From contig JABIGM010000046.1 of the NCBI GenBank assembly GCA_018650165.1, positions 1-10,446 on the forward strand: a stretch of DNA of 10,446 nucleotides, written 5' to 3'. How positions within the stretch are numbered: position 1 is the stretch's first letter; every line of letters begins with the position of its first letter. The stretch comes from Methanobacteriota archaeon. GTDB taxonomy: Archaea; Thermoplasmatota; Poseidoniia; Poseidoniales; Poseidoniaceae. The position numbers were made by a program, and so were the translations under genes. The notes under the pieces are model-generated. The model was not told the DNA's origin, searched no databases, and worked only from the letters and a program-made list of their open reading frames with translations. Shown here in pieces: positions 1-2,456 of the stretch.

Positions 1-282
1 AGATAACTTGGAAATATTCCGTGCTTTAGTTGGTGCTAATCCAACTTCTCGAATCATCGATTGAATATCTTCTACTGGTAATTCGGACATTCTCTTAGCA
101 TCAGTCCCTCTTCTAAATAATTCAGGAGTTACTTGGTTCACCTTTTTGTCAGTGGTTTGAGCACTCATCAGTACAGCGATTAACAATTGAAATGGAGATG
201 TATGATCCAAAGGTACTGGTGTTTCAGAATATAATTCTTCAAGCATTTGTAATATCTGCGATGCTTTTTCAGACCGCTTCAT
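1..282 (-). CDS. nth: Endonuclease III (HhH-GPD DNA glycosylase/AP lyase), N-terminal 94 aa; runs off the window edge
   Basis: Not in the supplied ORF track; translated by hand from ATG at 282: MKRSEKASQILQMLEELYSETPVPLDHTSPFQLLIAVLMSAQTTDKKVNQVTPELFRRGTDAKRMSELPVEDIQSMIREVGLAPTKARNISKLS. PFQLLIAVLMSAQTTD..VN..T..LF and IREVGL..TKA.NI are typical Nth segments. SD GGTGAT at 291-286. Confidence 0.93.
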   Translation of the reverse strand, partial: MKRSEKASQILQMLEELYSETPVPLDHTSPFQLLIAVLMSAQTTDKKVNQVTPELFRRGTDAKRMSELPVEDIQSMIREVGLAPTKARNISKLS

Positions 283-285
283 AGT

Positions 286-291
286 ATCACC
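286..291 (-). promoter_or_regulatory. Shine-Dalgarno GGTGAT for nth, overlapping the upstream TGA stop
   Basis: Minus strand reads CAA GGG TGA TACT ATG. GGTGAT is complementary to the archaeal 16S 3' end (AUCACC) and lies 3 nt before the ATG. Confidence 0.7.
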
Positions 292-502
292 CTTGATAGT
301 TCACGCCGTATTCTTCGCCACTCGCCCATGCCCAAAGGAATCCCATAATTATGGATCCAAATGGAATAATGTTGCAGAAGAATACAACTTCGAGTGAATA
401 ATTATCCTCACTAGCTCCTACCAATAGCCATCCCAAATAGCCAATAATTGTGCCAGGGAATATAGAAAGAAGCCCAATAATCAATGCTCTTAGAAACCTC
501 AT
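287..502 (-). CDS. Small hypothetical membrane protein, 71 aa, 2 predicted TM helices
   Basis: MRFLRALIIGLLSIFPGTIIGYLGWLLVG...VVFFCNIIPFGSIIMGFLWAW. ATG 502 is preferred over the track's GTG 526 (inside polX) because SD GGTGAT (511-506) precedes it. It fills the polX-nth gap exactly. Confidence 0.72.
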   Translation of the reverse strand: MRFLRALIIGLLSIFPGTIIGYLGWLLVGASEDNYSLEVVFFCNIIPFGSIIMGFLWAWASGEEYGVNYQG

Positions 503-505
503 TAA

Positions 506-511
506 ATCACC
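506..511 (-). promoter_or_regulatory. Shine-Dalgarno GGTGAT for the 71-aa ORF, overlapping the polX TGA stop
   Basis: Minus strand reads TTG GGG TGA TTTA ATG, the same geometry as the nth junction. Confidence 0.7.
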
Positions 512-2438
512 CCAAGAGCTTTCCACTCATTTCTTCTGCGGTCAAGGAATTAAGAATATCTTCTCTTTCAAGCCAACCCTTTCGTGCAATCATCACACCA
601 TAGTCGATGTCGCCTAACCCTTTGATAGAGTGGGCATCGGGATTGATTACTACGGGTACGCCTAATTCTTTGGCGCGTTTGCAAAGCCTCCAATCCAAGT
701 CGAGCCTATATGGTGAAGCATTGAGTTCTACTGCCTTTAGAACACCCGATTTATTGTATTCAGACATATGTTCGAGAACAGTATGGAGGTCTACCTCATA
801 GCCATCTCTTCCCTGCAAGATTCTCCCGGTTGGGTGGCCTAGAACTGTTGTAGCTGGGTGCTCAATACACTTCAGTAAGTCTTCAGTGTTCTGTGATTCA
901 TCCCGACTTCTCCATTTTCCCATCGCATGAACGCTGGCAACCACATAATCGATTTGTGCTAGAACATCATCCGGATGATCGAGTTTTCCATCCTCAAGAA
1001 TATCAGATTCAACTCCACTAAATAATCGGAAGTCGACTCCTTCATTTTTCCATTTAGAATTATATTCTTGCATCTTAGCATGCTGTGCTAGCAGGTCATC
1101 TGCACTTGCTCCATGGGCAACTTGCAAGGTAGGTGAATGGTCTGCGATACCTAGCCAATTCCAACCCATTCGTTGTGCTGCGTCTGCCATTTGCTCCAGA
1201 CTAGCCTCGCCATCTGAAAGTGTAGTATGATTGTGTAGTGCCCCCCTTATGTCAGATAGGGATGTTAATTCAGGTAGCATTTTACTTGCAGAAGCCTCAA
1301 TTTCACCCATATCCTCTCGTAGTTCAGGTATGACAAATTGTAATCCTAGGTGTGCATAAATTTCAGATTCTGTTGTGGCGGAAAGTGACGTTGCTGCAGC
1401 CTCTAAGCCAGTCAATTCGGTTTCTGGCATCAAACCAAATTCATTTAATTTCAAGCCCTTGTCTTGTGCAACTTGTCGCATTCGAATATTGTGTTCCTTT
1501 GAACCAGTGAAATACGCCAAGGTAAATGCGAATACATGCGGCGGGACCAATCTCACTTGGGCATCGATAGTTCCACCCGACTCCAATTGTTCGTAGCCTT
1601 CTCCACCAATAGCGTCCAGTACATTAGCATCTAAGTGGCCTAGACTAAACCCACCGTCAAATATCGAGGTGTCAAGAATGACAGATACCTTTGAATCTCC
1701 AGCACCCTTAACGTCGGCAATACCGTTCAAAGAAAGAATGTCTGCAGTAACTCGTTCAACATCCTCGGGCTGTACTGCTGCAACAATATCTAGGTCACCT
1801 ATTGTTTCACGCCGTCTACGTGCGGAACCTGCTAATTCTGCTCTTTCAACTCCTACTAAATTTTGAATCATTGCAAGGAATGTTTGGCCATACCGTAATC
1901 CTATATCCAAACGTCTTCGCTCAGAAAATCGTGCTAGTAGGTCAATACCATCCAAGATTTTCTGCTGGCTTTTGGCACCAAATCCTTTCATCGGCGCCAC
2001 TTCATTTTTGACGCATACTTCCTGCAAATCAGCTATCGTTTGAACGCCTAATACGTCATGTAGAATTTTGATTTTCTTAGGCCCAACTCCAGGTATGCCG
2101 AGCATTTGGATTAGCCCTTCAGGAGTTTCATCATGCAGAGTTGTCCAATCTTCGGGCCACCTACCTTCACCTACTGCTTGGCTTATCGCTGAACCTAATC
2201 CCTTGCCGATTCCTTTCAATTCGAATAACTCTCCACTAGCAACCAATTCCCCAAGGTCTTGGGATAATGAACCAATTAGGCGTGAGCCATTTTGATAGGA
2301 ACGCGTGCGGAACATATTGGCTCCTGATAATTCGAGTAGGATTGCCATTTGATGCAAGGCGGTACTGATTTGGTTCCTGCTAAAGAAGGGTGGACCGTTG
2401 ATGCGGGGCTTGGGTAACTTCCACGATCCGCCTGCCAT
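507..2438 (-). CDS. polX: Family X DNA polymerase fused to a PHP 3'-5' exonuclease domain (PolX/PHP), non-canonical catalytic triad
   Basis: N-terminal LELSGANMFRTRSY, two HhH motifs (KGIGKG, IPGVGPKK), palm GSARRRRETIGDLDIV, thumb YFTGSKEHNIRMR...KGLKLNEFGL, and PHP ligands HNH/SDG/DHS/GVESD/SVH/GHPTGR/DAH. Start 2438 (MAGGSW) is preferred over 2453 because a TTCAAC hexamer lies 26-21 nt upstream; 2453 remains possible. Confidence 0.95.
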   Translation of the reverse strand: MAGGSWKLPKPRINGPPFFSRNQISTALHQMAILLELSGANMFRTRSYQNGSRLIGSLSQDLGELVASGELFELKGIGKGLGSAISQAVGEGRWPEDWTTLHDETPEGLIQMLGIPGVGPKKIKILHDVLGVQTIADLQEVCVKNEVAPMKGFGAKSQQKILDGIDLLARFSERRRLDIGLRYGQTFLAMIQNLVGVERAELAGSARRRRETIGDLDIVAAVQPEDVERVTADILSLNGIADVKGAGDSKVSVILDTSIFDGGFSLGHLDANVLDAIGGEGYEQLESGGTIDAQVRLVPPHVFAFTLAYFTGSKEHNIRMRQVAQDKGLKLNEFGLMPETELTGLEAAATSLSATTESEIYAHLGLQFVIPELREDMGEIEASASKMLPELTSLSDIRGALHNHTTLSDGEASLEQMADAAQRMGWNWLGIADHSPTLQVAHGASADDLLAQHAKMQEYNSKWKNEGVDFRLFSGVESDILEDGKLDHPDDVLAQIDYVVASVHAMGKWRSRDESQNTEDLLKCIEHPATTVLGHPTGRILQGRDGYEVDLHTVLEHMSEYNKSGVLKAVELNASPYRLDLDWRLCKRAKELGVPVVINPDAHSIKGLGDIDYGVMIARKGWLEREDILNSLTAEEMSGKLLG

Positions 2439-2456
2439 GTAATGTCGACGCATGTC

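Follow-up and report, generated by a model that had tools for sequence, protein, structure and literature searches.

Prokaryotic family X DNA polymerases of the PolX-PHP type are best described from T. thermophilus PolX (ttPolX; 3AU2/3AUO) and Bacillus subtilis PolX. Prostova et al. (2022; PMC9226535) separate canonical, polymerase-active PolXs, with three acidic triad residues, from noncanonical ones, in which at least one triad residue is not D/E. Their criteria for a canonical dNTP pocket are R183, a YF/HF steric gate, a GS cis-peptide, K/R at the D276 position and N279 (pol beta numbering), and the consensus of the PHP ligands is HHHEHHEDH. Noncanonical PolXs, such as that of Deinococcus radiodurans (DrPolX; 2W9M, triad AEE), combine an incomplete triad and an intact PHP domain with a degraded pocket (N279, the K and the steric gate lost, often GS too) and frequent palm/fingers deletions. 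Altered triads occur in about a quarter of prokaryotic PolXs, in bacteria conservation is higher at the PHP site than at the polymerase site, and loss of polymerase activity with PHP kept is common. Noncanonical PolXs in this sense are Mn-dependent 3'-5' exonucleases that lack polymerase activity, and broken-triad PolXs are currently read as exonucleases without synthesis.

Substitutions at the polymerase site can be severe. In B. subtilis PolX, D203A abolishes synthesis and leaves the exonuclease intact. In pol beta, which has no PHP domain, D256E lowers activity by about three orders of magnitude, and R254, whose side chain contacts D256, also matters for catalysis, R254A reducing kcat from 51 to 1 per min (PMC5499815). 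I found no PolX or pol beta variant in the literature that lacks the third carboxylate and has been shown to polymerise. Searches combining PolX with Thermoplasmatota returned nothing; a Poseidoniales AP endonuclease is the subject of a 2026 preprint, but that enzyme belongs to the ExoIII family and is not a PolX.

The window, the whole 10,446-nucleotide stretch of DNA analysed here, contains a polX gene (Table 1) whose product is a PolX-PHP family X DNA polymerase, a base-excision-repair enzyme, from a Poseidoniales (Marine Group II) archaeon. The preliminary description had framed the protein as bacterial, which does not hold: the lineage is archaeal, and relatives at 87-90% identity bear the names Candidatus Poseidoniales archaeon or Poseidoniaceae archaeon. 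Residues are numbered from the 648-aa ORF; most relatives' gene calls start at M6, giving 643 aa.

Table 1. Features of the polX region, in positions of the window
Feature	Position	Strand	Evidence and remarks
HhH-GPD (endonuclease III-like, nth) gene, 5' part, leaves the window	1..282	(-)	Pfam PF00730, E 3e-12
Small hydrophobic ORF between polX and nth	287..526	(-)	tblastn: present in 38/50 loci
polX (648-aa ORF)	507..2453	(-)	8-kDa HhH, HhH/thumb, palm, fingers, C-terminal PHP
PHP nuclease domain	510..1247	(-)	Ligands H407, H409, H439, E482, H509, H540, E576, D606, H608
F339, clade-specific Tyr-to-Phe	1437..1439	(-)	Signature scan: F predominates in the clade (96%), Y in canonical outgroups (81%)
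Y314-F315-T-G317-S318-K319-E-H-N322-I-R-M-R326	1476..1514	(-)	Y314 to N322 and R326 invariant, 51/51
R301, pol beta R258 equivalent	1551..1553	(-)	Clade-invariant, six different Arg codons
D297-A298-Q299	1557..1565	(-)	Q299 at third catalytic Asp; D297 at canonical Gln (pol beta R254)
Residues 262-294, insertion of ~32 aa, beta4-beta5 hairpin (pol beta Loop II)	1572..1670	(-)	Alignments, DSSP
G219-D220-L221-D222, first two catalytic carboxylates (DxD)	1788..1799	(-)	phmmer alignment, clade conservation
G209-S210-A-R212-R213, triphosphate-binding motif	1815..1829	(-)	Invariant, 51/51; corresponds to ttPolX 187-GSARR-191

All the marks of the prokaryotic PolX-PHP type were found: HhH, thumb and fingers, a palm with GS-x-RR and D-x-D, PHP, and the fold, in the five-domain architecture of ttPolX and B. 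subtilis PolX. Pfam matches above the curated cut-offs cover HHH_8 (residues 28-97), HHH_5 (117-169) and DNA_pol_B_thumb (312-380), and PHP is matched as well. No Pfam palm-domain family was among the matches at E <= 0.01, and the palm is seen instead in GSARR (209-213) and GDLD (219-222), which align to the same motifs in ttPolX. Against the PDB, phmmer aligned the protein to ttPolX 3au2 (E 7.9e-95, 32% identity), and Foldseek, run on an AlphaFold2 model (pLDDT 94.2), gave 3AUO_A as best match (E 1.9e-49, TMq 0.70, TMt 0.78), a ternary complex of ttPolX with gapped DNA and ddGTP; the match to DrPolX is weaker (TM 0.56-0.57). Besides both palm motifs, ttPolX shares the R258 equivalent, YFTGSKEHN..R and the full set of PHP ligands, all nine of which are intact and fit the consensus, as the preliminary description had judged.

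The first two catalytic carboxylates are canonical, exactly at the residues and coordinates given earlier (G219 at 1799-1797, D220 at 1796-1794 and D222 at 1790-1788 in the checked translation). D220 and D222 are invariant in 51 Poseidoniales PolXs, with GAT and GAC mixed. The difference from ttPolX lies on the strand of the third. Here phmmer aligns D297-A-Q299-V-R-L-V-P-P (D297 at 1565-1563, GAT; Q299 at 1559-1557, CAA) without gaps to Q241-V-D243-L-R-V-V-P-P, putting Gln in place of D243 and Asp in place of Q241. An alignment of palm/fingers fragments sets Q299 over D256 of pol beta and the third Asp of pol lambda, with D297 over R254, so that Asp and Gln stand where pol beta has Arg and Asp. 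In the MAFFT alignments all 51 Poseidoniales sequences have Q in the column of Q299, where 105 of the 146 outgroup PolXs have D. Four independent alignments confirm, at the level of sequence, that Q299 occupies the third-Asp position, as had been proposed, and none has an Asp of the Poseidoniales protein there. The triad is D220/D222/Q299, one acid short of the three of a canonical PolX (Prostova et al., 2022). Since Q is the commonest residue at position 297 in canonical outgroups (70/107), the change is a literal Asp/Gln swap.

DSSP shows strand 295-303 of the model to be continuous, with no break, and D297, Q299 and R301 are therefore predicted to share one face, in keeping with the earlier placement of D297 two residues upstream on the same side. 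A register shift or beta-bulge that would bring D297 to the canonical position was considered and found no support, the alignments being gapless from the R-x-V-P anchor and the strand unbroken.

The swap was found in every sampled Poseidoniales member possessing polX. The motif [D/E]-[A/V]-Q is present in 51/51 PolXs of the order, which span three families at 50-99% identity, and in all 121 proteins from the initial search, made up of the query itself and 120 relatives at 87-100% identity. Sixteen PolXs from other Thermoplasmatota have the canonical Q-V-D and a tight hairpin. The change from Q-V-D-L-R to [D/E]-A-Q-V-R appears to have taken place on the stem of Poseidoniales, before its families split. 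Synonymous codons are mixed at both sites (28 CAG and 21 CAA for Q299; 31 GAT, 16 GAC and 2 GAA for position 297), and both residues are therefore under purifying selection. Position 297 is D in 49 and E in 2 of the 51 proteins; it evidently tolerates only acids, and the acid there is itself under selection. The preliminary description had allowed that Q299 might be a sequencing or assembly artefact. Its presence in every relative disposes of this, and the wider proposal of an error or a decaying pseudogene is extremely improbable: the 648-aa frame is open, both Gln codons are used, the motif recurs in 121 proteins from numerous independent assemblies, as well as in 49 other genomes, 156 of the 648 positions do not vary within the order, and nothing was found in favour.

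The dNTP pocket is preserved throughout the order. G209, S210, R212, R213, D220, D222, R301, Y314, F315, G317, S318, K319, N322 and R326 are all invariant, and R326 is, by my own assignment, presumably the equivalent of pol beta R283. F339, at what I take to be the position of pol beta Y296, is a further difference from canonical PolX, as is the archaeal lineage itself. The canonical pocket is complete in 51/51 proteins, with R213 (the R183 equivalent), Y314-F315, G317-S318, K319 and N322. Steric gate, cis-peptide GS, basic residue and N279 equivalent all lie in the block from Y314 to N322 (PMC9226535). In the same alignment N322, K/R319, [YH]F, R326 and R301 are retained in 84-93% of canonical and only 5-18% of noncanonical outgroups, a pattern that agrees with Prostova et al. 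(2022). Conservation between families f1 and f3 is 0.695 in the fingers, 0.655 in the palm, 0.574 in PHP and 0.549 in the 8-kDa domain; fingers and palm also rank above the other domains in conservation among the canonical PolXs of Thermoplasmatota.

With Q at the third position, Poseidoniales PolX formally falls under the noncanonical definition, and it shares with those enzymes an incomplete triad and an intact PHP domain. However, its pocket is invariant where theirs is degraded, and its palm carries an insertion instead of a deletion. Membership of the described noncanonical clade is ruled out by pocket conservation and by the tree. The DDQ triad is not among the abundant triads listed by Prostova et al. 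(2022), nor does it occur in the supplementary files searched. That study does match what the preliminary description gave as known on the need for three carboxylates and on the nuclease role of broken-triad PolXs. The preliminary description had set a polymerase-dead scaffold carrying a PHP nuclease against a migrated D297. A decaying polymerase core is excluded because the dNTP-pocket and fidelity residues are invariant order-wide; what stands of that choice is a rewired site or an inert nucleotide-binding core.

The palm insertion is present in all 51 Poseidoniales PolXs (~27-40 aa) and missing from ttPolX, from nearly all of the 146 outgroups and from the 16 other Thermoplasmatota PolXs. 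Where ttPolX has a two-residue hairpin turn, the Poseidoniales protein has ~32 extra residues. An analogy with Loop 1 of TdT and pol mu, judged by where that loop lies in those enzymes, is ruled out by the position of the insertion right before the third-ligand strand. Because it is directly N-terminal to this strand, the insertion is Loop II, the loop joining palm strands 4 and 5, which in human/rat pol beta comprises residues 240-253 (PMC1888816). The 14-residue loop of pol beta is flexible, whereas the Poseidoniales counterpart is a predicted folded module of ~35 residues with two short helices (276-281 and 285-292; DSSP on the model, pLDDT 77-87). The insertion and the D-to-Q change date to the same stem branch, and D275 is the only invariant residue within the insertion, in long and short forms alike. 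Both facts would suit a third carboxylate supplied by D275, with the enlarged Loop II folding back onto the metal site. Yet D275 stands right before helix 276-281 in the model, the pattern of a helix N-cap, and outside D275 the insertion has only 25% identity between families; I consider such a ligand quite improbable.

Does a polymerase site built in this way still work? The residues for gapped-DNA binding, Mg-dNTP binding, rNTP exclusion and checking of the nascent pair are all frozen, from which I infer that it does; what D297 and Q299 do in catalysis is part of the same inference. That the site is rewired yet still fills gaps, D297 acting through Q299 or a water, has in my estimate an even chance of being right. 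That the third carboxylate has moved two residues along the strand, exchanging roles with its second-shell partner in an active polymerase, I would put slightly short of even. On the order's stem the canonical Q at the R254 position and the third Asp exchanged places, at the same time as the hairpin loop ahead of the strand gained ~30 residues. In the rewired site D220 and D222 would hold both metals, the shell of the catalytic metal would be completed by the carbonyl oxygen of Q299 or by a water between Q299 and D297, and D297, as a second-shell residue, would provide negative charge and a proton acceptor. The enzyme may be less active than canonical ones, or may prefer Mn2+.

Against a rewired site, the residue replaced is the very one specific to the catalytic metal and to 3'-OH activation, the literature offers no polymerising variant without the third carboxylate, and D256E and D203A show what its tested relatives lose. 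Moreover, the residues kept are also needed merely for binding Mg-dNTP and DNA, so that an inert binder fits the pattern equally well. The core would then be catalytically dead, binding a gap or nick with Mg-dNTP and closing without adding a nucleotide, and PHP would do the enzymatic work. I hold this to be possible, though on balance doubtful. As 3'-phosphodiesterase, AP endonuclease and 3'-5' exonuclease, PHP would clean the ends left by Nth, the core would position the DNA or gate the nuclease, and the gap would be filled by PolB or PolY; genes for a B-family and a Y-family polymerase are present in the same genome and could serve. Such a core would have lost a single catalytic residue, and D220, D222 and the triphosphate and base contacts would be required even if it did no more than bind. 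Tested PolXs with one triad residue substituted lose synthesis and keep the exonuclease, altered triads and loss of the polymerase with PHP retained are common enough in prokaryotes, the PHP ligands are intact, and the ttPolX exonuclease is reported to require both POLXc and PHP (PMC2665239); the 2009 ttPolX paper gave nothing usable on triad residue numbers or on the effect of dGTP on the exonuclease. A dead core does not, however, explain why an acid was gained and fixed at 297 beside Q299, nor why conservation is highest in palm and fingers. Exonuclease-only lineages drop the equivalents of the steric gate, N279, R283 and K, which PHP does not need and which are invariant here.

The neighbouring HhH-GPD gene bears out the earlier mention of Nth, and nth lies directly downstream of polX on the same strand in 46/49 related loci. 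The small hydrophobic ORF between the two is context and no part of the active-site finding. A link to NHEJ, as proposed for bacterial PolXs, was rejected: no Ku was found in this genome, which is 80% complete. With the rewired site, repair would run from an Nth cut at the damaged base, through removal of the blocked 3' end by PHP, to filling of the one-nucleotide gap by the polymerase core.

To judge from its sequences, the Poseidoniales clade is an exception to the usual pairing of a broken triad with decay of the nucleotide pocket. If the polymerase is active, the third in-line Asp (pol beta D256) would not be universally required in family X, and the enzyme would be a natural template for first-shell/second-shell exchange at a two-metal site and a case in which the Pol beta nucleotidyltransferase superfamily had naturally evolved another geometry for nucleotidyl transfer. 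If it is inactive, it would be a pseudo-polymerase kept nucleotide-binding by selection, pointing to an unrecognised regulatory or DNA-clamping role for the PolX core while PHP cleans the ends. In both cases the finding bears on how base-excision repair is annotated in Marine Group II, in which polX and nth form a conserved module; these are among the ocean's most abundant archaea and live at the sunlit surface under a heavy oxidative and UV load.

The polX gene encodes a protein with the Pfam domains HHH_8, HHH_5, DNA_pol_B_thumb and PHP that matches both Thermus thermophilus PolX (ttPolX; phmmer E 7.9e-95) and D. radiodurans PolX (3.9e-73). The preliminary description had located an intact D-x-D motif and an altered third ligand at coordinates that proved exact, and had called the PHP ligands intact, as they are at nine of nine positions of the HHHEHHEDH consensus. 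Its central claim, that Q299 stands in place of the third catalytic Asp, is agreed by every alignment made (ttPolX, pol beta, pol lambda and MAFFT). An ungapped phmmer pairing sets DAQVRLVPP against 241-QVDLRVVPP of ttPolX; with the palm/fingers fragment alone, the pol beta alignment begins at Q299 = residue 256, and Q299 pairs with the Asp in strand D-I-R-V-V-P of pol lambda. The MAFFT alignment (197 sequences) has D in this column in 105 of 146 outgroup PolXs. An AlphaFold2 model from a 149-sequence alignment (mean pLDDT 94.2, pTM 0.88) has as its top structural match 3AUO_A, in which ttPolX forms a ternary complex with gapped DNA and ddGTP (E 1.9e-49, TM 0.70/0.78). Strand 295-303 is unbroken in the model and so places D297, Q299 and R301 on a common face, bearing out the suggestion that D297 shares a strand face with Q299.

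Coordinates of polX, its discussed residues and neighbouring genes
Feature	Position	Strand	Details
polX ORF	507-2453	minus	648 aa; relatives called from M6, 643 aa
A89 (8-kDa domain)	2187-2189	minus	
G219-D220-L221-D222	1799-1788	minus	D-x-D motif
D297-A298-Q299	1565-1557	minus	Q299 codon CAA
F339	1437-1439	minus	
Small hydrophobic ORF between polX and nth	287-526	minus	79 aa from GTG, about 71 aa from internal ATG
HhH-GPD (endonuclease III-like) gene, nth	starts 225 nt downstream of polX	minus	

Matches at 87-90% identity carry the names Candidatus Poseidoniales or Poseidoniaceae archaeon, which places the host in archaeal Marine Group II rather than among bacteria. DAQ occurs in the query and in all 120 relatives from an initial search (87-100% identity; 121 proteins in total), and T-[I/M]-[D/E]-[A/V]-Q-[V/I]-R in all 49 further polX genes taken from Poseidoniales genomes of about 20 genera. 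Conservation in the lineage had been proposed as a check, and Q299 was found in every Poseidoniales relative sampled (51/51), with D at 297 in 49 and E in two. Q299 is encoded by 28 CAG and 21 CAA codons, position 297 by 31 GAT, 16 GAC and 2 GAA, and R301 by six different Arg codons with the residue unchanged. An artefact or a decaying gene is excluded, the swap being kept in all relatives with mixed synonymous codons. The E-A-Q sequences (codon GAA) belong to two family f3 loci, L036 and L037, whose close relative L050 has D; either acid is thus tolerated at 297, and nothing else in the sample. PolX is present in 133 of the 151 Poseidoniales genomes searched (74/74 in family f1, 2/2 in f2, 56/74 in f3). 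Within f3 it was not found in genus g12 (0/10 genomes) or in six of nine genomes of genus g17. These genomes are 83-93% complete and 1.2-1.6 Mb in size, and secondary loss in streamlined f3 lineages is suggested.

Canonical outgroups have D at 299 and, in 70 of 107, Q at 297, whereas Poseidoniales have Q and D respectively. Among 15 clade-specific fixed differences found in a scan, those at 297 and 299 alone are radical. The conservative ones include F339, Phe in 96% of Poseidoniales PolXs and Tyr in 81% of canonical ones, at what I take, from the pol beta sequence INEYTI, to be the position of pol beta Y296. On enzyme closure pol beta Y296 and a neighbouring Glu receive R258, and the Y-to-F change may be coupled to the swap. 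Where Poseidoniales PolXs have residue 297, pol beta has R254, whose side chain forms a salt bridge to D256 and sets it for catalysis; kcat falls from 51 to 1 per min in R254A, and D256E lowers activity by about three orders of magnitude (PMC5499815). D297 is therefore no random neighbour, since it occupies the single position from which a side chain ordinarily reaches the third ligand. The Asp/Gln exchange at the third-ligand and second-shell positions is order-wide and selected.

It is accompanied by expansion of Loop II, full conservation of the nucleotide pocket, an intact PHP site and linkage to nth. Between strands 255-260 and 295-303, where pol beta has Loop II (the stretch 240-253 that joins palm strands 4 and 5; PMC1888816), Poseidoniales PolXs carry about 27-40 extra residues. 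The window PolX has 32 residues more here than ttPolX, and its insertion is predicted to form two short helices (pLDDT 77-87). Its sole invariant residue is D275, the remainder having just 25% identity between families. D275 might donate the third ligand, but in the model it directly precedes helix 276-281 in the manner of a helix N-cap, and I consider such donation possible but very unlikely.

Altered-triad PolXs are already known: noncanonical enzymes make up 27.5% of prokaryotic PolXs, with 302 triad variants, and 12 are archaeal, of which 11 are from Methanomicrobia (PMC9226535). Those of D. radiodurans and D. gobiensis, like the B. subtilis D203A mutant, lack synthesis and keep a Mn-dependent PHP exonuclease (PMC9226535). 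The main rival explanation is an inert polymerase core that would still bind gap and nucleotide and serve the PHP nuclease. The single residue lost is the catalysis-specific one, the single triad mutants tested do not synthesise, PolXs have commonly lost synthesis, and the genome (80% complete) has other polymerases, of the Y and B families. This explanation is a serious contender, albeit one I would not bet on. In described noncanonical PolXs the steric gate is gone, as are the counterpart of N279 and the basic residue found where pol beta has D276; the GS cis-peptide has often been lost too, and many have palm or fingers deletions (PMC9226535). The outgroup sample reproduces this pocket loss: N322, K/R319, [YH]F, R326 and R301 are kept in 84-93% of canonical (N=107) and 5-18% of noncanonical outgroups (N=39). 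Poseidoniales PolXs, in contrast, combine an altered triad with a fully kept pocket (100% for the same residues, N=51). Invariant in 51/51 are G209, S210, R212, R213, G219, D220, D222, R301, Y314, F315, T316, G317, S318, K319, E320, H321, N322 and R326, among 156 invariant positions of 648 overall. Identity between f1 and f3 is 0.695 in the fingers, 0.655 in the palm, 0.574 in the PHP and 0.549 in the 8-kDa domain; canonical Thermoplasmatota PolXs likewise conserve fingers and palm above the other domains. Judged by these sequence comparisons, constraint on the Poseidoniales polymerase core is not relaxed. The triad DDQ is missing from the abundant-triad list of PMC9226535 and from its supplementary files as searched. 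Judging by the literature searched, three features are new: the D/Q exchange itself, its combination with an intact pocket and Loop II expansion, and its fixation across Poseidoniales.

All 16 PolXs sampled from other Thermoplasmatota families are canonical (x-Q-V-D-L-R-V-V, tight hairpin, YFTGSKEHN), and none was found in seven genomes of the class's sister order. In a maximum-likelihood tree, unrooted and made by a quick method, Poseidoniales PolXs form a single clade (SH-aLRT 100) whose long stem measures 0.74 changes per site, apart from the Thermoplasmatota PolX clade (separating branch SH-aLRT 98). They weakly adjoin two clusters, and some members of one of these, P0125, bear the name Planctomycetota. 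Splits within the clade track families; thus, the swap and insertion had a single origin on the stem and have persisted. As a lead only, the unrooted tree and the seven sister-order genomes with no PolX found suggest that the ancestor of Poseidoniales gained polX by horizontal transfer.

Of 49 related loci, drawn from all three families, 46 have nth directly downstream of polX, and the small hydrophobic ORF lies between the two genes in 38 of 50 Poseidoniales loci, f2 and f3 included (tblastn). No Ku was found in the genome (80% complete). If G81-I-G83 is set by eye on the G64-V-G66 motif of pol beta, A89 would correspond to K72, the dRP-lyase nucleophile; in this alignment ttPolX has Lys. If so, a pol beta-type dRP lyase may be lacking, which would suit repair that begins with a glycosylase of the lyase type, Nth for instance.

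Exonuclease-only lineages show decay of the pocket, of the steric gate and of the minor-groove residues; here all of these are frozen, and an acid has been gained and fixed directly beside the lost one. For these reasons I favour, at about an even chance, a rewired yet working gap-filling site. Both metals would be bound by D220 and D222. The shell of the catalytic metal would be completed by Q299 or by a water that Q299 and D297 hold, and D297 would supply charge and proton acceptance. After incision by an Nth-type enzyme the 3' end is blocked and the 5' phosphate is normal, so on this reading cleaning of the 3' end by the PHP domain followed by one-nucleotide filling would complete the repair pathway.
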